DNA of 64,000 nucleotides from an uncultured Pseudomonadales bacterium (GCA_964537615.1 CAZIBX010000001.1:1929-65928), one strand, 5' to 3'; positions 1,477 through 58,550 are shown, numbered from the stretch's first letter. The notes: a model not told the origin generated them from the letters alone. Program-made: numbers and translations.

Positions 1477-1566
1477 CGCCTACAGCATACCAAATGAGTT
1501 CTCTGTTTGCCCGCTCTCATCCGCCTCTTCCCTACCACCTCACCCTTGAAGTACAATACAGTGGTA

Positions 1567-2838
1567 ATGAGACGGCTCCTGAATATCATCTGGGTTGTGG
1601 TGTTGTTTGTGGTTTTCTTGAGCAGTAGCCAAAAGGCGTCTGCTGCTACTTGTCCCGGTTTACATCAAGGTGTAGGAAATAACGTTTTGCTACCTATATA
1701 TACGCCGGGAGCGAGTCACACGGTGGTTATTGACACCTCGACGTTTAATAAGAACTACAATTACTACTTCAAAGTCAAAAATGGCAGTTTTTCTGATGAT
1801 GAAGCTCAAACACCATCTTTTAGAGTCGACGCTTCAAACAGTATCACAGATGGCTGTAACCAGATTACGGTTGATGCTACCAATAATAAAGTTACTTGGG
1901 TAATTTCTTGTCGGGAAGCACTACAAAATGCTGGTGACCGAGTTCAAGAAAAAGACCCTCATTATGTGATTGCTTATAGATGGGAGGCCGGGTCTAACCG
2001 GTTTTGTGACGTGGGTGCATACTACACTTCAGACAATGTGCTGAAAAACTCGACTTGTAAATTGGTTATCTGGCAAGGCGATGACTCACAACCAGGTATG
2101 GCTTGTTACGCCCCTGGATGTATCGAGAAAGACAAAGATGTCACTATCAGAGTAGACGAGTTAAAAATCAATAACCAACCATACAACGGCAATGTTTCAA
2201 TGGATTTAGCTGCAGGTGGAACCGACATTGTCCAAGATAGAGTTGTCGCCATCACCAATGGTATTGGAATGACTAAGTTTCCTCCGCGAAGCAAAACAAA
2301 ACATTCTGTGATTGTGAAGGTCAGAAATGCTGACGGTGGCCTTCGGATCGTTCCTGGTTGCAGAGCTAGTTTTAATGTTTCTGACTACTGTAGTCCCAAT
2401 CAGTGTAATAAAACCAGAACAGTTATGACTCCAGGAGACTTAAACGGGGCTCCGTTTAAAATCTGTGATCAAATCGACAGTGGTTTGCAGGACAGTCAGG
2501 GACGCAACATGAAAAATCTCTGTATCCAGTGTATCGGTGGTGATGAAGAAGGTCGGGAAGGTATGTGGACGGCGTTGGGCTGTATTCCTCGCCAACCAGA
2601 GCAAATCGTCAAACGTTTCTTGCTACTGGGACTGGGGATGGGAGGTGGGGTTGCTCTACTGATGATTCTGGTGGCTGGCTTCCAGATTTCTACCTCACAA
2701 GGTAATCCAGAACAGTTTAATAAAGCCAAAGAAATGCTAGTCGGAGCCATTACCGGTTTGCTGTTTATCATTTTTTCGGTGACGATTTTGCAGTTTATCG
2801 GTTACTCGATTTTGAAAATACCAGGATTTGGAGGGTAA
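1567..2838 (+). CDS. Large Cys-rich secreted ectodomain protein with a C-terminal pilin-like two-TM anchor (first member of the paralog array)
   Basis: The internal Met at 1567 gives a clean signal peptide (MRRLLNIIWVVVLFVVFLSSSQKASA). A ~330-aa Cys-rich ectodomain follows. The C-terminus (…LGLGMGGGVALLMILVAGFQISTSQGNPEQFNKAKEMLVGAITGLLFIIFSV…) has the same TM–polar loop–TM architecture as the downstream small paralogs. Confidence 0.6.
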   Translation: MRRLLNIIWVVVLFVVFLSSSQKASAATCPGLHQGVGNNVLLPIYTPGASHTVVIDTSTFNKNYNYYFKVKNGSFSDDEAQTPSFRVDASNSITDGCNQITVDATNNKVTWVISCREALQNAGDRVQEKDPHYVIAYRWEAGSNRFCDVGAYYTSDNVLKNSTCKLVIWQGDDSQPGMACYAPGCIEKDKDVTIRVDELKINNQPYNGNVSMDLAAGGTDIVQDRVVAITNGIGMTKFPPRSKTKHSVIVKVRNADGGLRIVPGCRASFNVSDYCSPNQCNKTRTVMTPGDLNGAPFKICDQIDSGLQDSQGRNMKNLCIQCIGGDEEGREGMWTALGCIPRQPEQIVKRFLLLGLGMGGGVALLMILVAGFQISTSQGNPEQFNKAKEMLVGAITGLLFIIFSVTILQFIGYSILKIPGFGG

Positions 2839-2840
2839 AG

Positions 2841-3575
2841 ATGAAAAAACAACTGATGAGGATAGTCACGACTTTACTATTTGTTGGTTTGGTTGCGTTT
2901 TACCCCCATCCAGCTCAAGCCCAAACTTGTGGTTTTGCTACTAGAAACCGCTGTGACGTTTGTACTAATAACCAAAAGTGTGTCAGTGGCCTAGGTTGGC
3001 CAATTTATGATTGTAGAACTGTAGCCGGTCAGTGCGGCGCTCCCTGGCCCACCACCTGCAACCAAGGCAACTACTTGCGCTGTGACGTTTGTCCATCTGG
3101 CCAACAATGTCTCAAGAGTGGCTCCAACTATTACTGTGGCACCCCCACCACGGCTTGCGTTACCCCCGCTCCCACTTCACCACCTGGCACCACCCCCACC
3201 ACCCCACCCACCCCCACCATGTTTTCTCCCTACGATCCACCGACCAACGAAACTTTTGACATGGTCAACCCGCTCAAGATCGGTGGTGGCACTGATCTGG
3301 CGTCAGACCAACCATCTCAATTTGCCGGCCAACTTTCCTCTCCAGGAGGCATCGTTAGTCGAGTTCTGACTTATGCCTTTCCTCTGGCCGGCTTGATTCT
3401 TTTTGCCATGCTGACTTGGGGAGGATTTGAGATGATCATGGGCGCTGCTAGCAAAAAATCTCTTGACGCTGGTAAACAACGCGCTACCGCTGCGGTTGTT
3501 GGGTTTTTGATCCTGTTTGTGTCATACTGGATATGGCAAATACTAGAAGTAGTTTTTGGCATCGTGGTGTTTTAA
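2841..3575 (+). CDS. T4SS pilin-like (VirB2/TrbC-like topology) two-TM protein with a duplicated Cys-rich module and Pro/Thr linker
   Basis: A GGAGGG RBS lies 6 nt upstream and there is a signal peptide. Two copies of the motif RCDVC-x-x-x-Q-[KQ]-C-[VL]-x-SG are followed by a TPPGTTPTTPPTPT linker. The C-terminal hairpin is LILFAMLTWGGFEMIMGAASKKSLDAGKQRATAAVVGFLILFV. Confidence 0.6.
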   Translation: MKKQLMRIVTTLLFVGLVAFYPHPAQAQTCGFATRNRCDVCTNNQKCVSGLGWPIYDCRTVAGQCGAPWPTTCNQGNYLRCDVCPSGQQCLKSGSNYYCGTPTTACVTPAPTSPPGTTPTTPPTPTMFSPYDPPTNETFDMVNPLKIGGGTDLASDQPSQFAGQLSSPGGIVSRVLTYAFPLAGLILFAMLTWGGFEMIMGAASKKSLDAGKQRATAAVVGFLILFVSYWIWQILEVVFGIVVF

Positions 3576-3580
3576 AAAAT

Positions 3581-4027
3581 ATGCAGAAAAAATACTTAAA
3601 AAATTGGTCACAAAAAATTTGGAAACTTTTCAGCTTGGCTGGCGGTCTGGTTATAACTGCTACTCAACTAACTTCAACTGTTTGGGCTCAACCCGCACCA
3701 CCTTGTGATCCCGGCTCCGGTGGTATTAACCTGGGTGACTGTCTGCGTTTAAGCGATGACTCTCTGGTTTCCAGTGTTTATAACAACCCAGCAGCTCTGG
3801 TTAACTTGCTGGCCCGCAATTTATTTGTGGTGGCCGGAGTGTTTTTGTTTGGCTTATTTTTACTGGCCGGACTGAAAATTATCGCGTCAGGCAAGGGCGG
3901 CAAACAAGGCCTGGACGAGGCCAAAACTATGCTGACCTCGGTGGCTATCGGTTTTGCTATCATGTTTGCTGCCTACTGGATCGTCCAGATCGTCAAAATC
4001 ATTACCGGAGCCAATATAGTTTTATAA
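3581..4027 (+). CDS. T4SS pilin-like two-TM protein (paralog)
   Basis: The start is moved to the ATG at 3581, just after the upstream stop; the track ORF 3533 overlaps the previous gene. There is a signal peptide and the C-terminal motif FLLAGLKIIASGKGGKQGLDEAKTMLTSVAIGFAIMFAAY. Confidence 0.55.
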   Translation: MQKKYLKNWSQKIWKLFSLAGGLVITATQLTSTVWAQPAPPCDPGSGGINLGDCLRLSDDSLVSSVYNNPAALVNLLARNLFVVAGVFLFGLFLLAGLKIIASGKGGKQGLDEAKTMLTSVAIGFAIMFAAYWIVQIVKIITGANIVL

Positions 4028-4038
4028 TCAGGATCACT

Positions 4039-4407
4039 ATGCCAGCAGATGATTTCATAAACATAGTCGGCAACATTCAGCCACCACCAGGGGTCGAACA
4101 ACAAATTGCTGATTCCGGCCTGGCACCCAATGAAGTAGCTCTGTTGTTTTTTGTTAATAAGATGTTAATTGCCGTGACTGTGGTGATGGGTATCTGGGTG
4201 TTATTTAATCTGGTCTTGGCTGGAGTCTCGTATATTACATCCTCCGGTGATGCCAAAGCTCATACTCAAGTCAAAGATCGGCTGATTATGAGTGTATTGG
4301 GCATTATATTGATCGTGGGGGCTTATACTTTGACTGCCGTAGTCAGTTATGTCATTTTTGGTGACCCCAACTACGCTCTTAACCCCACTATTACCGGACC
4401 CAACTGA
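4039..4407 (+). CDS. T4SS pilin-like two-TM protein (paralog)
   Basis: Hairpin VLAGVSYITSSGDAKAHTQVKDRLIMSVLGIILIV. The stop overlaps the next start (TGATG at 4404–4409), indicating translational coupling. Confidence 0.55.
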   Translation: MPADDFINIVGNIQPPPGVEQQIADSGLAPNEVALLFFVNKMLIAVTVVMGIWVLFNLVLAGVSYITSSGDAKAHTQVKDRLIMSVLGIILIVGAYTLTAVVSYVIFGDPNYALNPTITGPN

Positions 4408-5021
4408 TGTCAAACCTGATCTCAATCACCACTCAAAAGATTAAACAGCTTTTTGCCAAAACACATGTTTGGACACTTCTGTTGATAGTTGGACTGATAC
4501 TGATTGCGCCGATTTCTGTCAGTGCCCAAAACTGCCCTTCCGGCTATCAATGTGAGGGGGGGTGTGAGTATATCGGTCACTGCGTTTCCAACCGAACCTG
4601 TATTTTGGTGCCACCCTTTTACATCCGGCCTGGTGCTAGAAACTGCGGATCTTTTATCATCGGCCGAGTTAATCCTCCTCAAGGAGTAGCCGATTACAAC
4701 ATGCAGACCGCCCTCCAACCAGGATCAGGCAATATCGGGATTTTGTTGTTTGTTTCCAATGTCGTTAAGTTAATTACGGCCGTGGGCGGAATTCTGATTC
4801 TGATCAACTTCGTGGTGGCGGGCATTACTTTGATCGCACAAGCTGGCAATACCCAAGCCATGACCGGCGTCAAAGATAAGTTGACTTATGGCCTGATTGG
4901 TTTGGTCATCATGGTGGCGGCCTACACGGCTATGGCTCTAGTGGGTCAAATTATCTTCGGCAATCCCTTGTTTATCATCAATCCAGATCTTAACGCCTTG
5001 GGTGCTTTATCTGGACCGTAG
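4407..5021 (+). CDS. T4SS pilin-like two-TM protein with an N-terminal Cys-rich ectodomain (paralog)
   Basis: Signal peptide, then a CPSGYQCEGGCEYIGHCVSNRTC Cys cluster. Hairpin FVVAGITLIAQAGNTQAMTGVKDKLTYGLIGLVIMVAAY. Confidence 0.55.
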   Translation: MSNLISITTQKIKQLFAKTHVWTLLLIVGLILIAPISVSAQNCPSGYQCEGGCEYIGHCVSNRTCILVPPFYIRPGARNCGSFIIGRVNPPQGVADYNMQTALQPGSGNIGILLFVSNVVKLITAVGGILILINFVVAGITLIAQAGNTQAMTGVKDKLTYGLIGLVIMVAAYTAMALVGQIIFGNPLFIINPDLNALGALSGP

Positions 5022-5046
5022 TAAGCGTTATACTATCTACACAAAT

Positions 5047-5433
5047 ATGCCACTCTCTTCCAAACTCGCCCAGTTCGGCCAAGGCCTCCAACCACCCACC
5101 GACGCTTTCAGCACCGGCTCAACCAATGATCTGACTCAACCGGTCAATGCTTTTACCAATCTTGAGTACATGGTGTCCAACGTCATTGCTATCGTGACTG
5201 CTCTAGCTTCCCTGATGTTTATTTACTACTTTATCATGGCAGCTATCAGCTGGATTAACTCCGGTGGTGACTCTGGCAAGCTACAAACCGCCAGAAACCA
5301 GATGCTGAACGCAGTTCTGGGTTTGGTGCTACTGGTCGCCAGTTATGCCATCGTAGGTCTGATTGGTACTTTGTTTGGCCTTGACTTGCTCAATCCTGGT
5401 AAAGTGCTCAAAGGTTTAGTTCCCACACCATAA
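5047..5433 (+). CDS. T4SS pilin-like two-TM protein (paralog)
   Basis: Internal Met chosen as start. Hairpin FIMAAISWINSGGDSGKLQTARNQMLNAVLGLVLLVASY. Confidence 0.5.
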   Translation: MPLSSKLAQFGQGLQPPTDAFSTGSTNDLTQPVNAFTNLEYMVSNVIAIVTALASLMFIYYFIMAAISWINSGGDSGKLQTARNQMLNAVLGLVLLVASYAIVGLIGTLFGLDLLNPGKVLKGLVPTP

Positions 5434-5438
5434 CCAAT

Positions 5439-5942
5439 ATGTTCAAACTTCACTTACTAAATCAAACTTTCAGAACCGGTGCGGTGTTTTTGACAGTGAT
5501 AATAACTATGGTGATAGCCACTTTACTGATGGGTGGTAGACCAGTCATGGCCCAGATCACCAACCCGGCCATCGGTGAGCTGGGTGGAAATGATAATTCT
5601 GGTCAGTACAGCCCTGATCCAGCGGCCGTCACTGCAGCCCAGTCAGGGGCGTCATTTTTGGCCCAGTTTGTCCGACTGTGGGGCAATGTAGTCACCATCG
5701 GAGTTATCTTGGTTTTAGTCATGTTCATCTGGGGAGCGATCGAGTGGATTACGGCCGGTGGAGATGCCGGCAAGATCGGCAAGGCCCGCGACCGGATGTT
5801 GCAGTCGGCCATCGGCTTACTGGTTCTAGTCAGTTTGTTTATCTTGATTGGTTTCTTGAGCGGAACTCTGTTTGGCGATACACTTGATATCCTCAAGCCC
5901 AAGTTTGTCACCCCCAATACCAACACCGGAGCCACACCATGA
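5439..5942 (+). CDS. T4SS pilin-like two-TM protein (paralog)
   Basis: Signal peptide. Hairpin MFIWGAIEWITAGGDAGKIGKARDRMLQSAIGLLVLV. The start overlaps the upstream stop. Confidence 0.55.
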   Translation: MFKLHLLNQTFRTGAVFLTVIITMVIATLLMGGRPVMAQITNPAIGELGGNDNSGQYSPDPAAVTAAQSGASFLAQFVRLWGNVVTIGVILVLVMFIWGAIEWITAGGDAGKIGKARDRMLQSAIGLLVLVSLFILIGFLSGTLFGDTLDILKPKFVTPNTNTGATP

Positions 5943-6457
5943 TTTTCAGCTCACTTGTCGCCCAACTACCAGACACCGTACCTTTTGATATCGGAGAGGC
6001 CGGAGCCACGATTATTCCCCATGCCGTAGGCAATAATACGCCGGATACTTACCAGGCAGCTTTTGGTAATTTCTTGGGCAGTATTTTGTCTTTTGTGATC
6101 GTTATTGCAGTCATCATGGTGTTTCTATATCTAGTCTGGGGAGCTATCGAGTGGATTACTTCTGCTGGTGACAAAGGCAAACTGGAAAAAGCCCGCAACC
6201 GGATGTTTCAAGCAGTGATTGGTATTATTGTGTTATCCGGCACTTTGGCTTTTCTGATGATTATCCAACAGTTTTTGGGTATTTGTGTGTTAAGTATCAG
6301 TGGTAAGTGTACCGGGACTTCCAGCGCACCAACTGAACTCTATAGATGCTTGCCCATCAACCAGTGCGGGCCACCTACCAACTCTGGAGTGAGTGTCGGT
6401 AACTGTTCTCCTCACCGGGTGGGCTATGTCAACTGTCGATTCCGGGCTACACCTTAG
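5939..6457 (+). CDS. T4SS pilin-like two-TM protein with a C-terminal Cys-rich tail (paralog)
   Basis: ATGA start/stop overlap with the upstream gene. Hairpin LYLVWGAIEWITSAGDKGKLEKARNRMFQAVIGIIVL. The Cys-rich extension (…CVLSISGKCTG…CLPINQCGPP…NCSPHRVGYVNC) is at the C-terminus instead of the N-terminus. Confidence 0.55.
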   Translation: MIFSSLVAQLPDTVPFDIGEAGATIIPHAVGNNTPDTYQAAFGNFLGSILSFVIVIAVIMVFLYLVWGAIEWITSAGDKGKLEKARNRMFQAVIGIIVLSGTLAFLMIIQQFLGICVLSISGKCTGTSSAPTELYRCLPINQCGPPTNSGVSVGNCSPHRVGYVNCRFRATP

Positions 6458-6559
6458 TCACTACGCCTTGATCAGACAGCAACTTGACACTCGAGAATAA
6501 AGCACTGTACAATATAAAAGTACTTTGTAGCAATCATTAATAATAAAAAAGGGAGCTGT

Positions 6560-6976
6560 ATGAAACAGTCGCTAAAAACAATCACCGCCTTGGGTGGTGT
6601 GATGGTGGGTACTCTGCTAGCCAGCGTGCCACAAACGATGGCCGCCATTGACGTAGGCACCATCGAAGGTACCAAGGGTATGGCCAATAACTTTGGTAGC
6701 TTTCTTTCCAGCTTGCTGACCATCGTCATGGCTATCGCCGCTCTGGCTGTTTTCATTTACTTGATCTGGGGTGGTATCGAGTGGATTACCAGCGGTGGTG
6801 ACAAAGGCAAAACCGAGACTGCCAGAAACAAGATCACAGCCGCAGTCATCGGTTTGATCGTCTTGGCTGCAGCTTATGCCATCTTGTCCATCGTGCTGCG
6901 ATTCCTGGGCTTCTCCAGCATTACCAACGTGTTTGAGAACGTCAAGGTGATCACGCCAGGTGGCAGTGGCATTTAA
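6560..6976 (+). CDS. T4SS pilin-like two-TM protein (paralog; canonical member)
   Basis: AAGGGAG RBS and a signal peptide. Hairpin IYLIWGGIEWITSGGDKGKTETARNKITAAVIGLIVLAAAY. Confidence 0.6.
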   Translation: MKQSLKTITALGGVMVGTLLASVPQTMAAIDVGTIEGTKGMANNFGSFLSSLLTIVMAIAALAVFIYLIWGGIEWITSGGDKGKTETARNKITAAVIGLIVLAAAYAILSIVLRFLGFSSITNVFENVKVITPGGSGI

Positions 6977-7000
6977 TTAAACTTTAAGATCAAAAGTTTA

Positions 7001-7031
7001 ACACCCTCCCAAAGTTTGGGAGGGTGTTTTG
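7001..7031 (+). terminator. Rho-independent terminator inside the paralog array
   Basis: Perfect GC-rich inverted repeat CACCCTCCC-aaagttt-GGGAGGGTG at 7003–7027, followed by TTTT. Confidence 0.6.
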
Positions 7032-7057
7032 GTAATTCTGATATAATAAGTGGTCAT

Positions 7058-7606
7058 ATGTCCATCAAGCACTTCGTACTCACTCTTGTTCTCGTTTTTG
7101 GTATCAGTTATGGCGTAGTTGGCTCCACTCCAGCCATGGCCGCCGGTACAACTGGCACAGATACCAACGCCGGTCAAGTTCAAACTCAAAACACTGACGG
7201 CTCACTCAACTTGACCACCAGCGTCAACACCGCTACGGCTTCCACTACCCCCAATCCTGATCTAGAGTACTTACCGCCTGGTTTTGCCAAATCTTTTCCT
7301 GATCTTTTGGCCAGTATTTTGACCTTGCTGGTAGCAATTGTAGCTATCTTGGTTTTTGCTTACCTGATTTGGGGTGGACTCAACTGGATTACCAGCGGAG
7401 GCGATAAGGGCAAAACTGAGACCGCCCGCAATAAAATCATGGCTGCCTTGATCGGGCTGATCATCATCGCTTCGTCATACGCCGTGCTTCAGATCGTGTT
7501 GCGGTTTTTGGGCTACAGCTCATTGATCGATGCTTTTAATAAAATCAAACCCATATCTGAACCGGGTCGTAACTTGCGGGTTGAACTGACTGTAGAGAAA
7601 GCATAG
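7058..7606 (+). CDS. T4SS pilin-like two-TM protein (paralog; near-duplicate of 6560..6976 in the anchor)
   Basis: Start placed at the internal ATG at 7058 (MSIKHFVLTLVLVFGISYG… signal peptide). Thr/Asn-rich ectodomain. Hairpin AYLIWGGLNWITSGGDKGKTETARNKIMAALIGLIIIASSY, ~85% identical to the previous paralog anchor. Confidence 0.6.
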   Translation: MSIKHFVLTLVLVFGISYGVVGSTPAMAAGTTGTDTNAGQVQTQNTDGSLNLTTSVNTATASTTPNPDLEYLPPGFAKSFPDLLASILTLLVAIVAILVFAYLIWGGLNWITSGGDKGKTETARNKIMAALIGLIIIASSYAVLQIVLRFLGYSSLIDAFNKIKPISEPGRNLRVELTVEKA

Positions 7607-7615
7607 GATAAAGCC

Positions 7616-8035
7616 ATGTGGCGATTACGCAAGTGGTTAAAACACATCGGTTTAATTTTATCTGTCATAGCATTGTCGATTCCGGGCCGAGTTCTGGCTC
7701 AAACTGTGGAGTGGAACGGAGTTTGTGTCGGAGGAGCTGATCAAGATGTGGCAACCATCCAAGGGCTGGAGTGCTTGATCGCCAATGTTTTTACGGTTTT
7801 TATTACTTTGTTGGGGTTGCTGGGTTTTGTCATGTTCATCATCGCCGGATTCAAGTGGATGACATCTGGTGGTAACAGTAAAGGTATGGAGTCAGCCAGA
7901 GGCGCTATGACTTATGCCGTGCTGGGTCTGGTGATCAGTTTAAGTGCTTTTATCATCATCAACTTAATCGCCGAGTTTACCGGAGTTAATATCATCCGGA
8001 CATTTTCTATTCCCACATCTGATTTGGGTATGTAG
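7616..8035 (+). CDS. T4SS pilin-like two-TM protein (divergent last paralog)
   Basis: Signal peptide. Hairpin FIIAGFKWMTSGGNSKGMESARGAMTYAVLGLVISL. Confidence 0.5.
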   Translation: MWRLRKWLKHIGLILSVIALSIPGRVLAQTVEWNGVCVGGADQDVATIQGLECLIANVFTVFITLLGLLGFVMFIIAGFKWMTSGGNSKGMESARGAMTYAVLGLVISLSAFIIINLIAEFTGVNIIRTFSIPTSDLGM

Positions 8036-8134: not shown

Positions 8135-11100
8135 ATGTGCAAAAACCGGATTTTGTCTGGATTGATAAGTTTTTGGCTGATATGTTTACTGGTGGTAGGA
8201 CTAGGGTGGTCATTTTCTAGACCTGCTTATGCAACTTATGGCTTGCCCGAGTTTAAAACTGATTTGACCTGGTTACTGGGCAACGGATCAGTGTCTGGCG
8301 CCCTACTGTTTAACGCTTTCCGCACCAATCCCGACCCCAGCTTCACCAAACATGTTTTAAGTGACGAGCAAATTCAAGATTTGTGTGATGGCGACTGCGG
8401 AGCCAAAAACATCGGTGTTAACATGGCTACCTTTTATAAAGGCGGTGACTATGCCAGAGCCAGAACTCACAAGATGAACTGGTCACTGGAGATCATCAGG
8501 GCCAACACTTCACCTCAAACTGTAGCCGATATCATCAATAAGGAAGGCGTAGGTAACGTCATCATCAGAATCGGGGTAAGTGGTTCGGCCGAAGGTTTTG
8601 AGAGTCCAGCCACTTATGCTAATTTTTTGCGGGCGGTGGCCAGTCAAGTCGGCGGTAAGCCGTTTTATGCTATCGCCGGCCCCAACGAACCAGATTTGGA
8701 AAAATGGCTTGCCCAGGGCTGTTCTGCGCCCGAACCCAGTGCCGCTGAAGCAGTGAGACGGGCGTACTACAGTTGTATCGGCAAACCATTGGCTGATTAC
8801 ATGAACGCTATGATTTCTGCCGGCCTACCCACCAATGTCCGCCTGCTGTCGCCGGCTTTTAACTTAACCAGCTTTACTTTTGCCGACAACCCCGGTCAAC
8901 CCAGTGGTATCCCAAGGGCTATGAGATCAGCCGGAGCCAAGTTTGACAAACTTTATGCTCTCTCTGGCAACATCTACCCCAACGGTGACAGCATGCAAAA
9001 CATCTGGAATCGTAATGTAGCCGGTGTGGTAGCCGAGTTAGGCAAGCCGATGATAATTACCGAAACCGGCCCGTGGAACAACTTGTTGACTAACCCGGGA
9101 GGACTGGATCTGTCCAAATACCCTGATTACAACGCCTCTGACGGGCAAGTTTATATCAACCCCATCTTGGGACTGAACGGCCCGGCCCGCAATATCGCCA
9201 CCATCAGAAACGACTTGATTAACCAAGGATATGAGGCACGCTGTGCTACCCCGGGCTTTAAAATCGAACTGACCCAATCCGGCCAGGACTGGATGGACGA
9301 CTTTGTGGATCAGTACACGCCCGGTAAAGTTTTTGGTGGAGGTCAAAATGCTTATATCAAAGGCCGACCGGCTCCCGGCCCTTATGGTGAAGGTGACCCT
9401 GTCCGCTCGACTTTAACCATCGATTATCGAGATGTAGAAGTACCCCTGTTTCGGGATGTGGGGGGCAAAATGTTTCTGACCTCATCACTGGAAGAATTTT
9501 TCGGGTTCAAAGACATCACGGCCCAAGACAACACTATCTCTGAAGTTAACTCGTCGGCGATCAACTCTCTCTTATCCAATCTGCAACGCTGTCAGGTAGC
9601 GGCCACGCTTTTAATCAAACAGGAAGAAATGTGTCAAAAACTGCAAAGTCCCGATGCTTGTGCGCTTTATCCGCGCCAAATTCAGGGTACTGATCTGAAA
9701 GTCCAGGATCTGCTTAATCGGTACAAACAAGAGGCGGGATCGGATTACAAGTCTGACGCGACTGTCAGACGGGTCTGTGAAAAACTGCAAGCAGACAGTC
9801 AAGCCAACCCAGAATTAAAACAAGGCCTGTCACTTATGCCACTACATCTCGACCGAGCCTACCGCCTGGCTTTTCTGGTGACGGCTATTCAGTTGCGCTA
9901 TCCCACCTGGGATACCATGTTTCACTTTTTTACCCACCCCAACGCCGGGCCGGTAGACGGGCCGGAAAAACCCACCACAGCTATTCTGGTTAATGCGTTC
10001 AAAGTGCCGGATATCACCACCAATAAAGGCACCGCCACCAGTGGCCAAACACCCTGGACTGACCCGGCCATTTTGACCCGCAACTCTCTTTTGCCCAAAA
10101 ATACTGCTACCAAACTGGAAGAAAAAGCTCAAGAAAAACGCGATACGCTGAAGCTGGCGGCCAGCTACTATGATCAAGCCGAGCAGTCTGAAAAAGATGC
10201 AATTTTTTGCGTAGCCAAAGAAGCTCCGACCGGTATTGGTGGCCCAGAGTGTAATGACGAGTTGTCCAAGGCTTTGACCGACATCATCAATGGCCAAGCC
10301 AAACTTAATCTTCCTCTACTGGAATGTCCACAGGATCCGGCTGACTACCAGATAGAAACCAGCTTAGGTATCACTGACCCGGGATCACTGGATCCGCGCA
10401 CCGATCCCAGTAAGGTTTACAGCGTGCCATTTGGAGCTCAACTGTTGGAAAATATCTTCCGGACTGTGCCTGTGGGAACCCGATACTCTACAGCTGATTC
10501 AACCCATCAAATAGAACCACTTGGCGAAAGCGACCCGATGTTTGCGGAAACTTGGCGCACTGGCGATCCAGAAGGAGATAATCCTCTACCAGGAGTGAGA
10601 GATTGGGGACTGAAAAGCATGTTTCATGTAGTGACACAGATGCAGGACAGGGGTTTTCCTTACTGCTGTAAAGATCAGCGCATCGTCAAACATTATCTGG
10701 TTTATCCAGAAGGATACGACCTGCAAACCGTCGAGGATACTCTGGCCGGTTCTTTTTTCAGCCAAACTCAACTGACGGCTTTACTGGAATCAGAAAAAAA
10801 TTATGATCGGGTCAAAGTTGAGAACGACTCGATTGGGTTTGAGGGTGGACAGTTGAGTAAAACGTTTGCAGATAGCCAGAATACTTCTCCCAACAATAAT
10901 GTTCAGGGCGATCCGGCTTGCGCCAAAGAAGAACGCCTGCCAAATGGTGATACCAGGACTTATTATGCCCTACCCTGCGATCGGACTTTTGAGTTTAAAA
11001 TTGGTCAAAAAAATGAGGCCTTGTCGGCGGGCATACTGGGAGGTAAGTTGGGCTTCTGGCTAAGAGAAGTCCAAAAAACCCTCAACTCTTCTGCCAGTGT

Positions 11101-11599
11101 GGCCCGAGCTTACCTGGATACCTGCGAAACCACCGAGCAGTTTTTGACTGGTCGCTGTGGCGATCAAACCATCACCGCTCCCAAGCGGGAAGAGGACGAC
11201 TGTACCGGTCTCGGGTGTCCGGGAGCACCCGCTCCCTCTGGCCCGGCTCCAACTGGTGTTTGTGATACCAACCAGCCCAACTTGGTGACTGATTTAAGTG
11301 TTGACCAGAACCGCAACTGGTGGCTGGATGTGCGTTGCCCGCAGTGTCAAAGTACCTGGGGAGATATCAGTTTGGACGTAACTACCAACGTGGGTAACTT
11401 CCACTGGGGGCCCAACAACTTGCCCCAGGGGGGGATGTTACGTTTTCCTTGCACTTCATGCAATCCGTCCAGTGTACAAATTTTGCCTTCTGCCGTATCT
11501 GGCGGGCAGTTTTGTATCACTATGAAGCTGACTTCCAACGCCGCCGGCAATCAGTGTCAGCAAGATAGAGAGCGATTTTTATGTGCGCCGGTACCGTAG
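8135..11599 (+). CDS. Large secreted protein with an N-terminal GH-A clan (GH5-like) glycoside-hydrolase domain and a Cys-rich C-terminal region
   Basis: Signal peptide. The sequence AIAGPNEPDLEKW matches the GH5 acid/base NEP signature. About 130 aa later, MIITETGPWNN matches the GH5 nucleophile Glu signature (x-T-E-x-G). The last ~150 aa contain >14 Cys. A TATAAT lies 11 nt upstream of the ATG. Confidence 0.45.
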   Translation: MCKNRILSGLISFWLICLLVVGLGWSFSRPAYATYGLPEFKTDLTWLLGNGSVSGALLFNAFRTNPDPSFTKHVLSDEQIQDLCDGDCGAKNIGVNMATFYKGGDYARARTHKMNWSLEIIRANTSPQTVADIINKEGVGNVIIRIGVSGSAEGFESPATYANFLRAVASQVGGKPFYAIAGPNEPDLEKWLAQGCSAPEPSAAEAVRRAYYSCIGKPLADYMNAMISAGLPTNVRLLSPAFNLTSFTFADNPGQPSGIPRAMRSAGAKFDKLYALSGNIYPNGDSMQNIWNRNVAGVVAELGKPMIITETGPWNNLLTNPGGLDLSKYPDYNASDGQVYINPILGLNGPARNIATIRNDLINQGYEARCATPGFKIELTQSGQDWMDDFVDQYTPGKVFGGGQNAYIKGRPAPGPYGEGDPVRSTLTIDYRDVEVPLFRDVGGKMFLTSSLEEFFGFKDITAQDNTISEVNSSAINSLLSNLQRCQVAATLLIKQEEMCQKLQSPDACALYPRQIQGTDLKVQDLLNRYKQEAGSDYKSDATVRRVCEKLQADSQANPELKQGLSLMPLHLDRAYRLAFLVTAIQLRYPTWDTMFHFFTHPNAGPVDGPEKPTTAILVNAFKVPDITTNKGTATSGQTPWTDPAILTRNSLLPKNTATKLEEKAQEKRDTLKLAASYYDQAEQSEKDAIFCVAKEAPTGIGGPECNDELSKALTDIINGQAKLNLPLLECPQDPADYQIETSLGITDPGSLDPRTDPSKVYSVPFGAQLLENIFRTVPVGTRYSTADSTHQIEPLGESDPMFAETWRTGDPEGDNPLPGVRDWGLKSMFHVVTQMQDRGFPYCCKDQRIVKHYLVYPEGYDLQTVEDTLAGSFFSQTQLTALLESEKNYDRVKVENDSIGFEGGQLSKTFADSQNTSPNNNVQGDPACAKEERLPNGDTRTYYALPCDRTFEFKIGQKNEALSAGILGGKLGFWLREVQKTLNSSASVARAYLDTCETTEQFLTGRCGDQTITAPKREEDDCTGLGCPGAPAPSGPAPTGVCDTNQPNLVTDLSVDQNRNWWLDVRCPQCQSTWGDISLDVTTNVGNFHWGPNNLPQGGMLRFPCTSCNPSSVQILPSAVSGGQFCITMKLTSNAAGNQCQQDRERFLCAPVP

Positions 11600-12052: not shown

Positions 12053-12835
12053 CTACTTACCCTGCCAAACAGTTTTGGGCAATTTTTTGATGACTGACTT
12101 GCTGGGCTTCCAGACACGACTGGCGCCGGCTTGTAACAACTCCGCGACTGTCATAAAAGTATCTGCCCCGACACTACTTGACCTCAATCGATCAGTAACA
12201 CTATCGATACCACTAAGTAAATCAGTGCCGGCAGGCCCGGTCAGGGTCAGGCCACTGGCTTTAATCAGTAGAAAAGCCAGTTCAGACAGAGAAGGTCGCT
12301 GGTCTAGAGTTAAAACTACACTGGCAAACTCCACCGGCTGATCACAGAGAGCGATGCTGGAAGTATTTTTATACTCGTCTTCATAACCGATGTATAACTG
12401 GGCTAGTGAATCCAGGTCTTTCACCCCGACAAAAATCAGTAAGTCCGCCTCAAAGCCGGCATAAGCAAACTCCACGGCTTTGATGTCCAGGGGTTTGGCT
12501 GATGACTTGGGTTTAATCGTCAGGTAAAACCGTTTGTTGGTCTCCCCGATGTGATAACTGATCTTGTCCACCTGTGACTCGACATAGGGAAAACTGATCA
12601 ACAAGTTGCGATTGCCCACTTCTGTTTCCAGATGAGCCAAGCCCTTGGTGATGGGTGAGGTGATTTTTTCTGGACAAACCAACTGGATGGATTTGCCATT
12701 TTCCGTCAAGCTAGTAGCCAGGCCGGCGGCAGTGGCCAGAGCGTCAATTGACGGGCTGGGAGGTAAAATCACTATGACTTGCTGGGACTGATTGATCAGG
12801 GTTGCTGCCGATGTCACAGCAGAAGTGTCAGTCAT
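12053..12835 (-). CDS. Hypothetical cytoplasmic protein, possibly a degenerate DHH/DHHA1 (NrnA-like) fold
   Basis: The N-terminal VIVILPPSPSIDALATAAGLATSL resembles DHH motif I/II (…SPDGDAIGS…) but has lost the Asp residues. A GPAG sits where DHHA1 proteins carry GGGH. This is a weak, sequence-only call. Confidence 0.3.
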   Translation of the reverse strand: MTDTSAVTSAATLINQSQQVIVILPPSPSIDALATAAGLATSLTENGKSIQLVCPEKITSPITKGLAHLETEVGNRNLLISFPYVESQVDKISYHIGETNKRFYLTIKPKSSAKPLDIKAVEFAYAGFEADLLIFVGVKDLDSLAQLYIGYEDEYKNTSSIALCDQPVEFASVVLTLDQRPSLSELAFLLIKASGLTLTGPAGTDLLSGIDSVTDRLRSSSVGADTFMTVAELLQAGASRVWKPSKSVIKKLPKTVWQGK

Positions 12836-12934: not shown

Positions 12935-14761
12935 ATGCGTGCGCGTTTCATGTTCACTAGCGTCGGTGTAGTGGTGACGGCCATAATTTTTGGCTGGCTG
13001 GTGGCCGGTGCAGTTCACGCTCAAGCTCCTACTCCCACTCCAGAACGAGAAATTGCCCCCAATCCTTTTGGCTATCAAATTTTTAAAGATGAAAAAGAAC
13101 AGTATTTAGAGGCAGTCAAAGACTGCTCTACACCATCACTTGAGTGTCTAGTACACAATGTAGCGCGTTTTACAGCCATCGAGTGGGTTTATGAAATCTC
13201 TGGCCCGCAGAGTAGTTGTCAACCAGGTGAGACCGGCCCGGAATGTCTGGAAAGCACCGAAAACTCTATCCCCGCTGATTCCTCCGGTTCTTCCCTACCC
13301 AGTTCCGTCCCTGTAGCCCAAGGCGCCATTGGCGGTATCGGTAAACTGATTTCTGCCATGTACCAACACCCCGTAGCCAACACCGGTACTTATGTGGCTG
13401 ACGTGTTAAACTCGGCTCATATCGCCACTCCGGCTTACGCTCAAGGCCTGGGCTTTGCTGCTCTTGATCCCATCCTGGTGCTGTGGAAAACTTTCCGCAA
13501 TATCGCTTATCTGTTTTTTGTCATAATTTTTGTCATCATCGGTTTTATGATTATGTTTCGCCAGAAGATGGGTAACGCGGCTATCACGGCCCAACAAGCC
13601 ATTCCCAATATCTTAACCGCCCTGATTTTTGTGACTTTTTCCTACGCTATCGCTGGACTTTTGATCGATATGATGTATGTGTTGATGATCCTGATTATCG
13701 GGGTATTTGGTGAAACCTTCCAGGAGGCCGGTCAAAACGTCAACATCCTGACTTTTAATATTCTCAACTTGGTGGGCGTGATGTTCCGTGGAGTGGCAAG
13801 AGTGGGCAATAACGTCGATATTATTTCCAGCTTGCTGGAAGGCCTGGGCGTGTCTGGGTTTCTTAATACCTTGACTAGTTTGTTGGGTGGTTTGACTTTG
13901 ACCCTGGTTTTGGCTATCGCCGTGCTGATCGGGGCCGTCAAGTTGTTTTTTGAACTACTACGCTCATACGCGACTGTGGTGCTATCTGTGGTCACGGCCC
14001 CCATTGTGCTGATGATGGGCGCTATACCTGGCAAAAACGTCTTCATGCCGTGGATTAAAACCATCGCCGGCAACCTTCTGCCCTTCCCCACAGTTTTGTT
14101 GGTGCTAGTCATGTACTACAAGTTTACTGATGGTACTATCCGTGAAGGTGGCGGTTTCATGCCGCCGTTTTTGCTCGGTGGTGGCCAGGGCGGAACGATT
14201 GTGGCTATCATGGGTTTGGCTATCATTTTGGCTCTGCCGGAAATTGTCAAAAAAGTGCGGGACAGCGTGGCACCCAAGGGTGGGATTGGGGAGTTTATAA
14301 CTGATGCTGGCGTGAAAGCTGCCAAAAATGCATGGAGTGGTAAAGTACCAGGTGGATTTAATGCGAAAAATATGTTTACTAGAACTGCCAAGACTCCACT
14401 AGCTGTGGCTGGCGGTTATCTTGGATACAAATATGCTGACAACAAAGCAAATGAACTTGGCCTTGAGGGTAGGGCGCGTAATATCGCACGAGCCGGTGGT
14501 ATACTGGGTGGCGCATCAATTGCTCCAAATATGTTTGGAATAGTAAGAAGAAGAGGTGGTGAGTTTGTGAGCCAGTTGGGTCAAGCCCAAGCTACTAAGT
14601 TCGTTCAAGACATAGAAACGGCCTCTAAACGACGACGCGGGCAAGCGGCCAGCCAGACCAACACAGATATTGCGGCAACTGAAACCACAGTAACTGCGGC
14701 GCCTACAGCGACCACAACGCGTGGTTCAAGTGGTGCCGATCCATCGACTCAAGGGTTATAA
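12935..14761 (+). CDS. VirB6/TrbL-like polytopic membrane protein of the T4SS-like locus
   Basis: Signal peptide plus a ~150-aa periplasmic region. Six or more TM helices span aa ~190–420. A Gly/Lys-rich cytoplasmic tail follows. Size and topology are typical of VirB6/TrbL/ConG, and the T4SS context supports the call. Confidence 0.5.
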   Translation: MRARFMFTSVGVVVTAIIFGWLVAGAVHAQAPTPTPEREIAPNPFGYQIFKDEKEQYLEAVKDCSTPSLECLVHNVARFTAIEWVYEISGPQSSCQPGETGPECLESTENSIPADSSGSSLPSSVPVAQGAIGGIGKLISAMYQHPVANTGTYVADVLNSAHIATPAYAQGLGFAALDPILVLWKTFRNIAYLFFVIIFVIIGFMIMFRQKMGNAAITAQQAIPNILTALIFVTFSYAIAGLLIDMMYVLMILIIGVFGETFQEAGQNVNILTFNILNLVGVMFRGVARVGNNVDIISSLLEGLGVSGFLNTLTSLLGGLTLTLVLAIAVLIGAVKLFFELLRSYATVVLSVVTAPIVLMMGAIPGKNVFMPWIKTIAGNLLPFPTVLLVLVMYYKFTDGTIREGGGFMPPFLLGGGQGGTIVAIMGLAIILALPEIVKKVRDSVAPKGGIGEFITDAGVKAAKNAWSGKVPGGFNAKNMFTRTAKTPLAVAGGYLGYKYADNKANELGLEGRARNIARAGGILGGASIAPNMFGIVRRRGGEFVSQLGQAQATKFVQDIETASKRRRGQAASQTNTDIAATETTVTAAPTATTTRGSSGADPSTQGL

Positions 14762-14777
14762 AAATCTAAACTTCACG

Positions 14778-17750
14778 TCACCTTTGATATTTAAAGACAC
14801 CTTCTACTTGTTGTGCTATAAGTTCGGTCATTTCTTGAGCATTCTCAACTGTTCCAAAGGATGCGTCCAAGGCAACGGTAATTGCTTTTACAGCATCTTC
14901 GCCGATTGCAGTAGTCAAGTAACTTAGTTTTTCTTTAACTTCTTTTAATTTAACTTTATCAACAGCTAACAAGGTTAAACATCTGGAAAAAACATGGACT
15001 ATTGTAATTCTTCTAAAAACATTTTCTGCTCTAAATCTACCGGCAGAAACCTCAAGACCCCAAACGGGAAAAAATGATGCCGCATACTTTACTTCATTCT
15101 GTTCTATTGGCAACTTATTGACATCGAGCACACTGTCACCTGGAGCATGGCTAAACATTTCATACAATCTAGTTATATTTTTGCCGTTGTTGTACCATTT
15201 TTCTATTCCATTGCTAGGTAAGACCAAGTCCCAAGGAATATATTCGTACATTATTCTGCCATCAGTATTAACAAAATCAGCCGCCGTAATAGGTGGTGGA
15301 ATGTAGCCGGGTTGCTCTGGCCATCTCATAACTGGTGTTTCGTTTGCTAATTGGGTTGGGTTGGCACTATAACGTGAAGTATCTGGATCTCTGAATATCA
15401 TATATTGAAGAGGCATGGGAATAACTTGATAATTTCCTTGTGGATTCTGGTGTAGTAACACCAATGGTAGGTTTGCCAAAAACTCAAAATCTGTTAAATC
15501 TTTTTCTCCTAGTGCTGTTAGTATTTTATTTCTTGCAGATGAGGTGTGTGATGCATCAGGCAAGTTGGCTAATCTAAAGCCTATACGTTCCACAATACCA
15601 TCGGGTTCTTTCATCCTTCTCATGTCATATCTTCCAATGTTATCCAATACATAATGTTTTCCATCGGCAGCGGGTGGTAGGTTTGGGTCATACTTTCTAA
15701 ATAAACAGATTGATTCCAAAATTGACGCTGGAGTTGTGCCCCCAATAACACCCTGACTTACATAGTCGAGCCATTGGTTGGCCTTAAACAGGCTATCATT
15801 TGTAAATGGACTTTTTCCAGGAATCATCATTGATTGATGTAATAGCATTGAATGAAAAAGCCAGGCCTGTCGTACTTCTAGAGGAGAAATGTCGTATCCG
15901 TAAAGAAGCATGGCTGTTCTGGAAATTACTGTATGTAAGTTGTTTTTGTAGCTGCTGATGTGTAGTGATTTATAGTAGTTGTCCAACAAAATTATTAGTT
16001 GCTGCTCTTCTTGGTTGGGAGTTCTACCTTCAGCTATAATTTTGTCTTTCAACATTTTGTGTAACTTATTTTTATATAAATCATCTAAAATCCGCATTAC
16101 CTCACCATGGGTAGTGGGAATAAAATCAGGCAAATTAACAAAGCCATCGGGAGATGAAAAATCTCTAATAGAATCTGCTCTAGATGGTAAGTCTCTTACG
16201 TATGCTTTTTCGTTATCGGGTTGAAGGTCGGGGTCTGGATCATGACCATTGCGTGGATGAATAGCTATAGAAAAATCTTGCTCTGTAATAAAGATTTCTG
16301 GAGTTTGTTGTGGAAACTGTCTCGTAGAATCGGTCTTCTGGTCACCAAAACCAAAAATCATGGGTTCTAGTTTCTGTTCTGCAAAAAATACTCTACGCCG
16401 GAAAGACAGTGTGCGCTGAAAAGCTGCATTGTCCAATTTTATTGCATCTCTTTTAAGAGATAGAACTGGATTTTGGCTCGCCTTTTTTTCTATTAAATTC
16501 AATCTGCCAAAACCTCTTTCGCCCGCGATAACAATATCCCATCCACTGGACTGTGTTGCGGCACTATCTTGAAAATAAAAGTTTGAATTTTTTAAGTCCA
16601 GTTCATCGTCTTGCATTCTATGTTCTATGGCTCTTTTTGTTTCCACATAGTCACACAAAAGAACTCTGCTTTCCAAAGAAAAATATTCTGTATCTTGGCC
16701 AAAAGCTCTTATTCTATCAAGCAAACCATAAAGTTTGCTCAGTCTTTCGGCCAATCTATCAGTCATAACTTCAAGCGTTACAGGTCCCAGCTGTTTAATC
16801 CTATCCAGTTCATCGTCTATCTCTTGTCTTAATTGCGTCTCTGTTTCTAGATCGACAGCAGGAGGGCTAGCTTCTGGCTGTGGGGTATAAGGCTGGTCAG
16901 TTGGTTCTTCCAACTCAATTTCTTCATCTACTGAAACTAATGGACTCGATGTTTGTGTGGCTTCGTCCTGTCTTACCTTTTCTATCGCTGCATCTACCAA
17001 CGCGTGAAGATCATCAAAAAAAGTATATAAATCGGGGTTGGATGCACTGTTAACCCTTGCTTCCTGATCATTGATGCGTTGGTGAAATCTCTCGAGGGCG
17101 GAAATAGTTGTTTCGGCAGTTGATTGTCGGTCTTCAAATCTTTTCAGCACCCTAGCTATTCCCTCTAGAATAAGTTTTGAAAAAGAATCCTTATCAAAAG
17201 ATTGTTCTCTAGTAGATCCACTGGCTTCGACTGTTAATGGGTCTTTTTCCTCCAACTTATCAAGCTCGACCATAATAACTTCCACCAACAATAACTGAAG
17301 TAAGCCTAAGCGTTCATTGTCGGCTTCCTGAACTCCTTGGTCCTCTGTCTGTTCAACACCCTCTGTCTCATCTTCGTCCATACCAAATAAATCTTTATGA
17401 GCCATGATCTCTGTCATGGCGCTTTGCGCCTGAAGATTACCTATGAAATCTACAATTTTATCGAATAATCCTCGGAGTTTTTGAGTTCTCTTTTCTTTTA
17501 TAGCAATCTGTAAAGCTGCGTGTGTGTCAAAATACAATTGCCTAATGTCATTATTTTTTGGTTGTTTTAAAAAACTGGATATTTCAGTTAATTGTTCTTG
17601 GTCAACAACTTCTTGTTTTAAAATATCAGCAACAACTTCAGAAATTTCATCCATGTCAACTCTGGTTTTACCAATCTCAACCAGTTGACCTGCCGTTACT
17701 TTTTTACTCAACAAATCTTTGACGGATAATCCTTTACTGCTTTCGGCCAT
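14778..17750 (-). CDS. Large (990 aa) soluble hypothetical protein, AT-richer than neighbours, on the opposite strand inside the T4SS-like locus
   Basis: Long clean ORF with no TM segments and no recognisable catalytic motif. It has acidic/Gln-rich N-terminal low-complexity segments. Its nucleotide composition is visibly AT-richer than the flanking genes. Confidence 0.6.
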   Translation of the reverse strand: MAESSKGLSVKDLLSKKVTAGQLVEIGKTRVDMDEISEVVADILKQEVVDQEQLTEISSFLKQPKNNDIRQLYFDTHAALQIAIKEKRTQKLRGLFDKIVDFIGNLQAQSAMTEIMAHKDLFGMDEDETEGVEQTEDQGVQEADNERLGLLQLLLVEVIMVELDKLEEKDPLTVEASGSTREQSFDKDSFSKLILEGIARVLKRFEDRQSTAETTISALERFHQRINDQEARVNSASNPDLYTFFDDLHALVDAAIEKVRQDEATQTSSPLVSVDEEIELEEPTDQPYTPQPEASPPAVDLETETQLRQEIDDELDRIKQLGPVTLEVMTDRLAERLSKLYGLLDRIRAFGQDTEYFSLESRVLLCDYVETKRAIEHRMQDDELDLKNSNFYFQDSAATQSSGWDIVIAGERGFGRLNLIEKKASQNPVLSLKRDAIKLDNAAFQRTLSFRRRVFFAEQKLEPMIFGFGDQKTDSTRQFPQQTPEIFITEQDFSIAIHPRNGHDPDPDLQPDNEKAYVRDLPSRADSIRDFSSPDGFVNLPDFIPTTHGEVMRILDDLYKNKLHKMLKDKIIAEGRTPNQEEQQLIILLDNYYKSLHISSYKNNLHTVISRTAMLLYGYDISPLEVRQAWLFHSMLLHQSMMIPGKSPFTNDSLFKANQWLDYVSQGVIGGTTPASILESICLFRKYDPNLPPAADGKHYVLDNIGRYDMRRMKEPDGIVERIGFRLANLPDASHTSSARNKILTALGEKDLTDFEFLANLPLVLLHQNPQGNYQVIPMPLQYMIFRDPDTSRYSANPTQLANETPVMRWPEQPGYIPPPITAADFVNTDGRIMYEYIPWDLVLPSNGIEKWYNNGKNITRLYEMFSHAPGDSVLDVNKLPIEQNEVKYAASFFPVWGLEVSAGRFRAENVFRRITIVHVFSRCLTLLAVDKVKLKEVKEKLSYLTTAIGEDAVKAITVALDASFGTVENAQEMTELIAQQVEGVFKYQR

Positions 17751-24192: not shown

Positions 24193-24277
24193 AACTAGCC
24201 AGAATACAGTTTGTCGCCCGCACCAGTTAATAAGTAGCGATAACCGGTTGAAGCAGAAGGTTGAATCCTGTATTCTT

Positions 24278-58482: not shown

Positions 58483-58550
58483 TTTGCACCTGATTGAGTT
58501 TGGGCCTACAATGAGTTGGGTTAACTTCCAACTGAATTAGCCCTGAAATT

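Follow-up and report, generated by a model that had tools for sequence, protein, structure and literature searches.

An array of eleven VirB2-like pilin genes at an origin-proximal type IV secretion locus of Patescibacteria: a probable fixed set of specialised subunits

Eleven consecutive genes, here named g1 to g11, were analysed in a stretch of 64,000 nucleotides (the window) that is catalogued under an uncultured Pseudomonadales bacterium. Sequence comparison indicates with high confidence that these genes form a VirB2-like pilin array of a Patescibacteria type IV secretion system (T4SS). As placed via its relatives, the host of the locus is an ultrasmall, Microgenomatia-type member of the Patescibacteria (candidate phyla radiation, CPR), and the T4SS is chromosomal and origin-proximal. 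Much of bacterial diversity belongs to the Patescibacteria, which are dependent on host cells. Taken as a whole, we consider it probable that the array encodes the VirB2-like pilins of this origin-proximal T4SS and that they act as a fixed, specialised team in a heteromeric pilus or conduit.

The eleven open reading frames (ORFs) are all on the plus strand and fill positions 1567-8035. Hydropathy plots showed two strongly hydrophobic segments near the C-terminus of all 11 products, with a loop of 15-18 residues between them. A hidden Markov model (HMM) of this C-terminal part (the anchor), built from the 11 proteins, recovered exactly g1-g11 in the window. BLASTP joined all 11 through the anchor with E values from 1e-4 to 1e-42. 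ORFs, HMM and BLASTP thus agree with the original prediction of eleven same-strand paralogs sharing a C-terminal two-transmembrane anchor. Judged from these matches their paralogy is far beyond chance, and the anchors are 14-60% identical in pairwise comparison. The loop contains 2-5 K+R against 1-2 D+E; its net charge is positive in 10 of 11 proteins and balanced only in g1 (2/2). One conserved loop motif, W(G/A)xIEWITSGGDxGKxExARNK, had been claimed for the whole array. The full motif is present in g7-g10 only, and it is degenerate in g1-g6 and g11.

Two stop/start overlaps described previously are real, TGATG at 4405-4409 (g4/g5) and ATGA at 5939-5942 (g7/g8). Such translational coupling implies co-expression of the adjacent genes. 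The starts of the genes were judged from ortholog alignments. Those of g1 (1567) and g10 (7058) were upheld, and two were corrected, to 3581 for g3 (not 3533) and to 5047 for g6 (not 5002). A signal-peptide-like N-terminus, that is a hydrophobic stretch ending in AxA, was read by eye in 8 of 11 products (for example KASA/ATC, AQA/QTC, VSA/QNC and TMAA/IDV) and is missing in g4, g6 and g8; these putative signal peptides are simply called signal peptides below.

The family membership of the anchor was determined by profile searches. PF18895 (T4SS_pilin) was the top Pfam family for 11 of 11 products, and seven of them (g1, g4 and g7-g11) reached its gathering score of 26.6 bits. The other four (g2, g3, g5 and g6) scored below the threshold and are still array members because of their BLASTP ties and their positional orthologs in other arrays. 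The homologs of g9 numbered 876 at E<=1e-5. The original prediction had also likened the topology of the anchor to that of VirB2/TrbC pilins, and profile similarity to this family (PF04956) was significant for g9 orthologs but not for the window proteins themselves. PF04956 was matched at E<=0.01 by 48 of 120 g9 orthologs (best 2.8e-8), and CagC (PF16943) by 13 of 120. These profile matches support TrbC/VirB2 homology for the g9 orthologous group, not for the window sequences alone.

A second link was found in NCBIfam. g9 matched NF045849, the Mbov_0395 pilin-like conjugal transfer protein family of Mycoplasma integrative and conjugative elements, with E=2e-8 over 76 of 80 profile positions. 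The scores were 33.7 bits for g9, 19.7 for g1 and 17.8 for g8. Since the curated cut-off is 40, these proteins are related to the family and are not members of it. The AlphaFold2 (AF2) model of g9 is a helical hairpin (H39-77/H82-115) with a predicted local distance difference test score (pLDDT) above 90.

The T4SS genes lie 10-19 kb 3' of the array, on the same strand and just before dnaA. They encode an M23 peptidase, PrgI, a TrsD-like protein and VirB4. The M23 peptidase domain (PF01551, E=1e-18) is at the C-terminus of a 1353-aa protein (17859..21920, plus strand) that also matches NCBIfam peptidoglycan hydrolases; by its sequence this protein is a candidate VirB1-type cell-wall hydrolase of the T4SS. 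PrgI, which is VirB3-like (22942..24192, plus), matched PF12666 with 36.3 bits (cut-off 27) and carries a C-terminal CarboxypepD_reg-like domain. The TrsD-like protein (24152..25135, plus; 327 aa) corresponds to about the N-terminal region of VirB4 and matched NF041427 (TrsD, E=6e-5) and NF045975 (VirB4_plasma, E=1.4e-6), both below the cut-off. The VirB4-type ATPase (25139..27178, plus; 679 aa) matched PF19044 (E=1e-22), PF12846 and PF03135. VirB4 appears split here, as the TrsD-like gene overlaps the end of the PrgI gene and precedes the 679-aa ATPase. The genes dnaA (27311), dnaN (29054), rnpA, yidC and jag follow 3' of VirB4. The T4SS pilin reading of the original prediction was supported by these results, with an anchor that falls in the curated family PF18895 and a locus that holds PrgI, TrsD-like, VirB4 and M23 genes.

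To compare the array with its relatives, species-representative genomes were scanned with an alignment of the g9 class. This gave 80 loci, with g9 identities of 45-74%, so that the species of the window itself is not among the representative genomes. Exact-sequence searches matched only two short Logan contigs. Because they were picked by a g9-like pattern, all 80 loci contain g9 by construction. Nearly all come from metagenome-assembled genomes (MAGs) labelled Pacebacteria, Woesebacteria, Microgenomates or Patescibacteria. Six-frame ORFs of each locus were searched with the anchor HMM, and each pilin ORF was assigned to the best-matching window paralog. Of the 80 loci, 79 had a class order collinear with that of the window. 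Most arrays had 7 genes (25 loci) or 9-12 genes (30 loci). The commonest order was 3-4-6-7-8-9-11 (18 loci), while three loci had the full order 1 to 11 and another five had it with one additional g9-like gene. By this classification the core of the array is seven classes (g3, g4, g6, g7, g8, g9 and g11), and g1, g2, g5 and g10 are accessory.

Positional orthologs were 40-70% identical, which is closer than any pair of paralogs within the array (14-60%). The N-terminal parts in front of the anchor (the heads) were less conserved among orthologs than the anchors, with median identities of 24-36% versus 41-70%, and were still class-specific. The heads had been described as unrelated and hypervariable. 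They are indeed unalike between paralogs, except for one weak BLASTP match between g2 and g5 (E=1e-4), but each head is kept in its positional orthologs. The suggested recent duplication of g9 and g10, from anchors said to be about 85% identical, did not hold. They are the closest paralog pair, with 87% identity over the best 30 residues, 83% over 40 and 63% over the 89 residues of the anchor (BLASTP 60% over 99 aa), so that a value near 85% applies to the 30-40 residue core only. Their DNA identity is 63%, and g10-class orthologs occupy the same position in 21 other loci. Taken together, these comparisons of sequence and order make the array look like an old, fixed, collinear set of specialised subunits, not a variable repertoire.

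Two further observations were made in the related loci. In locus L006 (3633-6928) and some other relatives, g1-g2 are set apart from g3-g11 by four opposite-strand housekeeping genes, which in L006 are uppS-like, isopentenyl phosphate kinase-like, Nudix/IDI-like and a sigma-70 factor. The two large-headed pilins are therefore a separable sub-module. Many related MAG records (L006, L008, L009 and others) bear the name 'uncultured Pseudomonadales bacterium', and one is called 'Vitreimonas sp.', although their arrays are collinear and of the Patescibacteria type. These titles look like taxonomic mislabels in public records.

From g1 to g11 the proteins contain 14, 12, 2, 0, 6, 0, 0, 6, 0, 1 and 2 Cys residues. 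The Cys-rich features and the Thr/Asn-rich head reported in the original prediction were all found as described, in g2, g5, g8 and g10. In g1 (1567..2838; 423 aa; accessory; PF18895 27.6 bits), two beta-sandwich domains and a small Cys-rich knot lie between the signal peptide and the C-terminal helical hairpin. Its 251 homologs are also about 400 aa long; in this family 11 Cys are invariant or nearly so, and the C-terminal IPGFGG does not vary. In the AF2 model (pLDDT 84.9) a signal helix is followed by beta-sandwiches at about residues 30-160 and 163-272, the small Cys-rich knot and the hairpin. Foldseek returned only generic tandem immunoglobulin (Ig), macroglobulin and FN3-like matches (E ~1e-5) for this model, and the g1 head thus models as two Ig-like sandwiches. 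When the head alone was searched against 1.84 billion representative proteins, 75 matches were obtained. Nearly all were 390-450 aa long with the head at residues 30-340. As the head-alone matches are confined to proteins of about 400 aa, the g1 head occurs essentially only in fusion with this anchor.

g2 (2841..3575; 244 aa; accessory) has a signal peptide, the RCDVC-x3-Q-x-C module twice, a Pro/Thr linker and the hairpin. Its PF18895 score is sub-threshold (20.7 bits), its anchor matches other paralogs with BLASTP E values of 1e-6 to 1e-14, and its orthologs stand at position 2 in other arrays. g3 (3581..4027; 148 aa; core) has a signal peptide, two Cys and a sub-threshold score of 18.2 bits; its orthologs are 42-64% identical at the same array position, and the class comprises 66 ORFs across the loci. 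g5 (4407..5021; 204 aa; accessory) has a signal peptide and a 6-Cys head (CPSGYQCEGGC...). It scores just below the threshold (25.0 bits), its orthologs are 30-45% identical over 120-204 aa, head included, and the class has 34 ORFs. g7 (5439..5942; 167 aa; core; 27.2 bits) has a signal peptide and positional orthologs of 42-54% identity. g10 (7058..7606; 182 aa; accessory; 33.0 bits), the closest paralog of g9, starts with a signal peptide, and its head is of low complexity and rich in Thr/Asn; its class counts 21 ORFs, all in syntenic position. g11 (7616..8035; 139 aa; core; 34.3 bits) has a signal peptide and two Cys, and its orthologs, 53-72% identical, are always last in the array.

Three core pilins have no signal peptide in the window. 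g6 (5047..5433; 128 aa) scores 26.5 bits against the cut-off of 26.6, and its positional orthologs are 43-52% identical. Like g6 itself, most of its orthologs have no signal peptide, and a signal-peptide-like stretch was detected in 11% of them. The crude hydrophobicity test used here is too blunt for wider use, since it misses the signal peptide of g9 itself, and it was applied only to show that g6 and g8 orthologs mostly lack one. g8 (5939..6457; 172 aa; 30.2 bits) carries a Cys-rich C-terminal tail past the hairpin. This tail has 4-11 Cys in orthologs of several loci, and in loci L021, L023 and L025 the identity is 40-44% over about 155 aa. The median identity of the tail over all orthologs is about 2%, which means that most lack it and that only a subset has it. 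g4 (4039..4407; 122 aa; 27.7 bits) is different, as most of its positional orthologs carry a signal peptide (for example L006 7364-7813). Between the g3 stop and the g4 start there are 11 nt, which leaves no room for a signal peptide in g4. Either g4 has really lost its signal peptide, or members of its class can enter the membrane independently of Sec targeting, as seems to be the case for the g6 and g8 classes.

g9 (6560..6976; 138 aa; core) is headless and Cys-free, has a signal peptide and gives the best PF18895 score of the 11 (36.5 bits). Few anchors of the array are as well conserved as that of g9, whose median ortholog identity is 67%. The 103-nt gap 5' of g9 is the only sizeable gap in the array. 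It contains a putative sigma-70-type promoter, TTGACA-18-TACAAT (6484..6513, plus), which matches 11 of 12 consensus positions. A match of at least 11/12 was found upstream of 38% of the g9-class genes, whereas any other class reached 0-2% and random windows 1.6%. At a threshold of at least 10/12 the values were 61%, 5-21% and 4.4%, respectively. Because it is headless, best conserved and provided with its own strong promoter, g9 is probably the major subunit. We regard the g9 class as a candidate major pilin, and the pattern of sequence features fits one abundant subunit with a co-translated rarer set. T4SS pilins are among the most highly expressed genes of unknown function in Patescibacteria metatranscriptomes (PMC10936435).

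The signal peptides and the positively charged loop predict an extracytoplasmic position for the heads and for the C-terminal tail of g8. The surface display suggested in the original prediction is reasonable on this basis. In solved VirB2/TraA pili both termini point outward and the loop lines the lumen. By analogy, the heads would therefore decorate the outside of the fibre or its tip. A 35-kDa head on every subunit seems sterically unlikely, which would favour minor or tip roles for the pilins that bear heads.

From these features we propose, with moderate confidence, that g9 is the major subunit of a heteromeric pilus or conduit and that the head-bearing paralogs are its adhesive minor subunits. 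Each pilin would be made as a membrane hairpin, in most cases by the Sec route and from a precursor with a cleavable signal peptide. Both helices would cross the membrane. The basic loop (GGDxGKxxxARNK) would be on its cytoplasmic side, and the N-terminal heads and, in g8, the C-terminal tail would be on the outside. A VirB4-driven machine would pull the hairpins from the membrane and polymerise them into a pilus or a wall-spanning conduit, in which the loop would face the lumen and the termini the outside, as in VirB2/TraA. g9 would probably form the bulk of this structure. The translationally coupled g3-g8, together with g11, would probably be low-abundance subunits for priming, the tip or the base. 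g1, with its two Ig-like domains, and g2 and g5, with their Cys-rich heads, would probably serve as surface or tip adhesins towards the host cell. Such head-bearing pilins would stand in for the VirB5/PrgB-type adhesins, which are absent from these systems.

A more specific form of this proposal is put forward tentatively, as a possible picture. The array would encode a heteropolymeric VirB2-type pilus, in which the headless major pilin g9, driven by its own promoter, is combined with six or more fixed minor paralogs that prime, cap or decorate it. In g1, g2, g5 and g8 the fused disulfide-rich or Ig-like adhesin domains would replace the VirB5/PrgB adhesins and set which host cell is attached to and drawn from. 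If this is true, such a division of labour would be unlike that of any characterised T4SS.

Several points weigh against this interpretation. No Patescibacteria T4SS pilus has been reported in the published accounts (PMC10633639, PMC12857230). VirB4 is 17 kb from the array, with a divergently oriented 990-aa gene in between; linkage to VirB4 was followed in the window, and the 10-kb flanks of related loci fell short of VirB4. The window proteins themselves matched PF04956 only with E values of 0.043 (g2) and 0.13 (g9). No VirB2/TraA was found in PDB sequences by a pilin-profile search, and the sole match, a light-harvesting subunit, was due to chance. The promoter evidence is a consensus scan made in loci selected by g9. 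The N-out topology of g4, g6 and g8 is an assumption, as these have no signal peptide. Finally, the essentiality of upstream genes in Southlakia epibionticum, which is described below, is possibly inflated by transposon polarity.

The hairpins might instead be stoichiometric parts of a T4SS channel that is embedded in the membrane or spans the wall. They would build a stalk or short pseudopilus of the type II secretion kind, with heads that touch the cell wall or S-layer and not the host, and no long pilus would arise. We consider this unlikely, though a serious alternative. In its favour, 7-12 distinct subunits in fixed collinear order look more like a defined complex than like a homopolymer, Gram-positive-type T4SSs, the source of this system, are normally without pili (PMC12102498, PMC10633639), and no pilus has been observed. 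A channel of equal parts does not sit well with the strong putative promoter that the g9 class alone has, or with the very high T4SS pilin expression (PMC10936435), which fits a polymerising major subunit. The similarity of g9 orthologs to the TrbC/VirB2 and CagC pilins also argues for a pilus.

Another explanation is that the array is a variation repertoire like the virB2 genes of Anaplasma, Bartonella and the Rickettsiales, with pilins swapped or differentially expressed to suit hosts or to evade recognition. This reading was proposed in PMC12102498, and the original prediction had pointed the same way. The great divergence of the array paralogs (14-60%), the faster evolution of the ortholog heads (24-36% versus 41-70% for the anchors) and the coming and going of extra g9-like copies and of accessory g1, g2, g5 and g10 between genomes would suit it. 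We nevertheless hold it to be improbable, as the collinear class order (79/80 loci) and the positional orthologs of each class, closer than any paralog, point to fixed roles. The mark of a Rickettsiales-type repertoire, recent or lineage-specific duplication with close relatives differing, was not found in the window array, where even the closest pair is only 63% identical at the DNA level. Translational coupling implies co-expression instead of alternation, and six of six array pilins of S. epibionticum score as essential (PMC10633639). It is very improbable that the genes encode small membrane toxin/immunity or bacteriocin-like proteins, or secreted T4SS substrates, as had also been suggested. 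Small hydrophobic proteins, some with Cys-rich extracellular parts, and tight gene packing are what one would expect of such a system. All 11 proteins, however, are in one pilin family, no ABC exporter or peptidase partner is present in the array, and the gene order is kept across a whole class of bacteria. Their Sec-type signal peptides route these hairpins to the membrane and not to a T4SS coupling protein, and a g9 tblastn search of 72,556 plasmids found no plasmid-borne homolog and thus no sign of a link to mobile elements.

The interpretation as a fixed team of pilins was compared with published systems. Arrays of this kind are already known, since VirB2-like arrays of 2-11 genes near dnaA have been published (PMC12102498, PMC10633639, PMC12857230), and the window array is a full-size member. 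Quinonero-Coronel et al. 2025 (PMC12102498) searched 3,035 Patescibacteria genomes with PF18895 and PF04956 and found 441 VirB2 arrays, each of 2-11 genes, spread over 383 assemblies; Microgenomatia and Saccharimonadia had them most often. The mean identity within arrays was 25%, and a role in host adaptation was suggested by analogy with Bartonella and Anaplasma. The same survey described an origin-proximal, Gram-positive-type T4SS layout near dnaA, which the window locus matches. In the Saccharibacterium S. epibionticum, Wang et al. 2023 (PMC10633639) reported that the pilins of the T4SS cluster are essential. In the supplement on transposon insertion sequencing (Tn-seq), SEML1_0014-0019 each scored as growth-defective and then essential, while the stray pilin SEML1_0024 was non-essential. 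A 2025 review stated that the Patescibacteria systems are unique among monoderms in possibly making a conjugative-type pilus (PMC12857230).

The window array has several features in common with these Patescibacteria arrays, among them SEML1_0014-0019 of S. epibionticum ML1, the 'Sec secreted array' of Nanosynbacter lyticus TM7x and the 441 surveyed arrays. They are tandem, same-strand PF18895 genes by dnaA, in or beside an MPF-FATA-like T4SS with PrgI, TrsD and VirB4, and with a mean paralog identity of about 25%. With 11 genes the window array is at the top of the size range of 2-11, and it differs in its large heads (a 330-aa double Ig-like head, Cys-rich modules and a C-terminal Cys tail). 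Positional orthology, the seven-class core, the class-specific promoter and the head domains are not described in the published Patescibacteria array accounts that we compared, and may appear elsewhere. The virB2 genes of Rickettsiales (Anaplasma, Ehrlichia and Rickettsia) and Bartonella are likewise tandem paralogs beside a non-conjugative T4SS in a host-dependent bacterium. Those genes are read as variable repertoires (literature cited in PMC12102498), whereas the window classes are anciently diverged, collinear and orthologous.

The conjugative pilins VirB2/TrbC/TraA (PF04956) and CagC (PF16943) have a leader or signal peptide, two hydrophobic helices, a short basic loop and a VirB4 encoded alongside; the pilins here resemble them in this, with signal peptides that are putative. 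The predicted hairpin superposes on archaeal conjugative pilins, and the two may share a fold. In contrast to the conjugative systems, the host here is monoderm and has no VirB5, VirB7, VirB9 or VirB10, many paralogs are present instead of one, and large folded domains are fused to some of them. No relaxase or coupling protein was found among the ORFs scanned across the window. Mycoplasma Mbov_0395 is, like g9, a small two-helix membrane protein near VirB4 in a monoderm MPF-FATA-type system; unlike the array, it is a single gene on a mobile element. The TrsD-like neighbour of the array also matches the Mycoplasma VirB4 family. Together, the match of g9 to NF045849 and that of the TrsD-like protein to Mycoplasma VirB4 suggest that VirB2-like hairpins may already exist in monoderm MPF-FATA-type systems, which bears on a published open question, the origin of the Patescibacteria pilins. 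A functional analogy can be drawn with type IV pili and the pseudopili of type II secretion systems (T2SS). These have one abundant headless subunit and conserved, co-transcribed rare paralogs, some with additional domains for priming the assembly or for an adhesive tip. Their subunit, an N-methylated single helix with a globular domain, and their PilB/PilC assembly are unlike the window array, with which they share neither fold nor machinery.

The only genetically tractable Patescibacterium cannot do without its T4SS and pilin array. The window array makes three ideas testable, namely that the pilins are specialised subunits and not a repertoire, that one class is the major pilin, and that adhesin-like heads are built into pilins. 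If these ideas are true, they indicate the proteins whose labelling, depletion or imaging could reveal the host-contact structure of CPR epibionts.

The array is followed directly 3' by a gene for a 1154-aa secreted protein (8135..11599, plus) with 30 Cys and one N-terminal hydrophobic segment, and 38 of 80 loci gave tblastn matches to it downstream of the array. It has no sequence match in Pfam, NCBIfam or PDB. By eye, the NEP and TETG motifs in its N-terminal part are reminiscent of clan GH-A glycoside hydrolases (GH5-like), which is an impression only. A 260-aa soluble protein without a family match (12053..12835, minus) is encoded at the equivalent position in 36 of 80 loci. Next is a 608-aa polytopic membrane protein (12935..14761, plus) that is kept in 36 of 80 loci and has no Pfam match. 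Its hydropathy profile shows at least 6 hydrophobic segments in addition to a signal peptide, and about 170 aa of it form an extracytoplasmic domain. VirB6 is scarce in Microgenomatia according to the 2025 survey (PMC12102498). The 608-aa protein could be a divergent VirB6/PrgH candidate, possibly the 'missing' one of Microgenomatia. The divergent 990-aa gene between the array and VirB4 lies at 14778..17750 (minus), and a 333-aa single-pass protein by hydropathy (21925..22926, plus) is encoded between the M23 and PrgI genes.

On the other side, a gene that runs off the left end of the window (1-1479, minus) is divergent from the array. In its product a signal peptide and a long coiled coil are combined with a SpoIID domain (PF08486, E=1.5e-16), by which it is classed as a cell-wall remodelling protein, and the gene is syntenic with the array in 9 related loci. 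The rest of the window consists of housekeeping genes, and Rfam and tRNA scans of the window found nothing. A second M23 peptidase, with LysM, is encoded at 53405-54535. Three tandem type IV pilin or T2SS-G-like genes with an N-terminal methylation motif are present at 57997-59587 (plus) and represent an unrelated pilin set. Beside these type IV pilin-like genes, a 1466-aa ORF occupies 59595-63995 on the minus strand.

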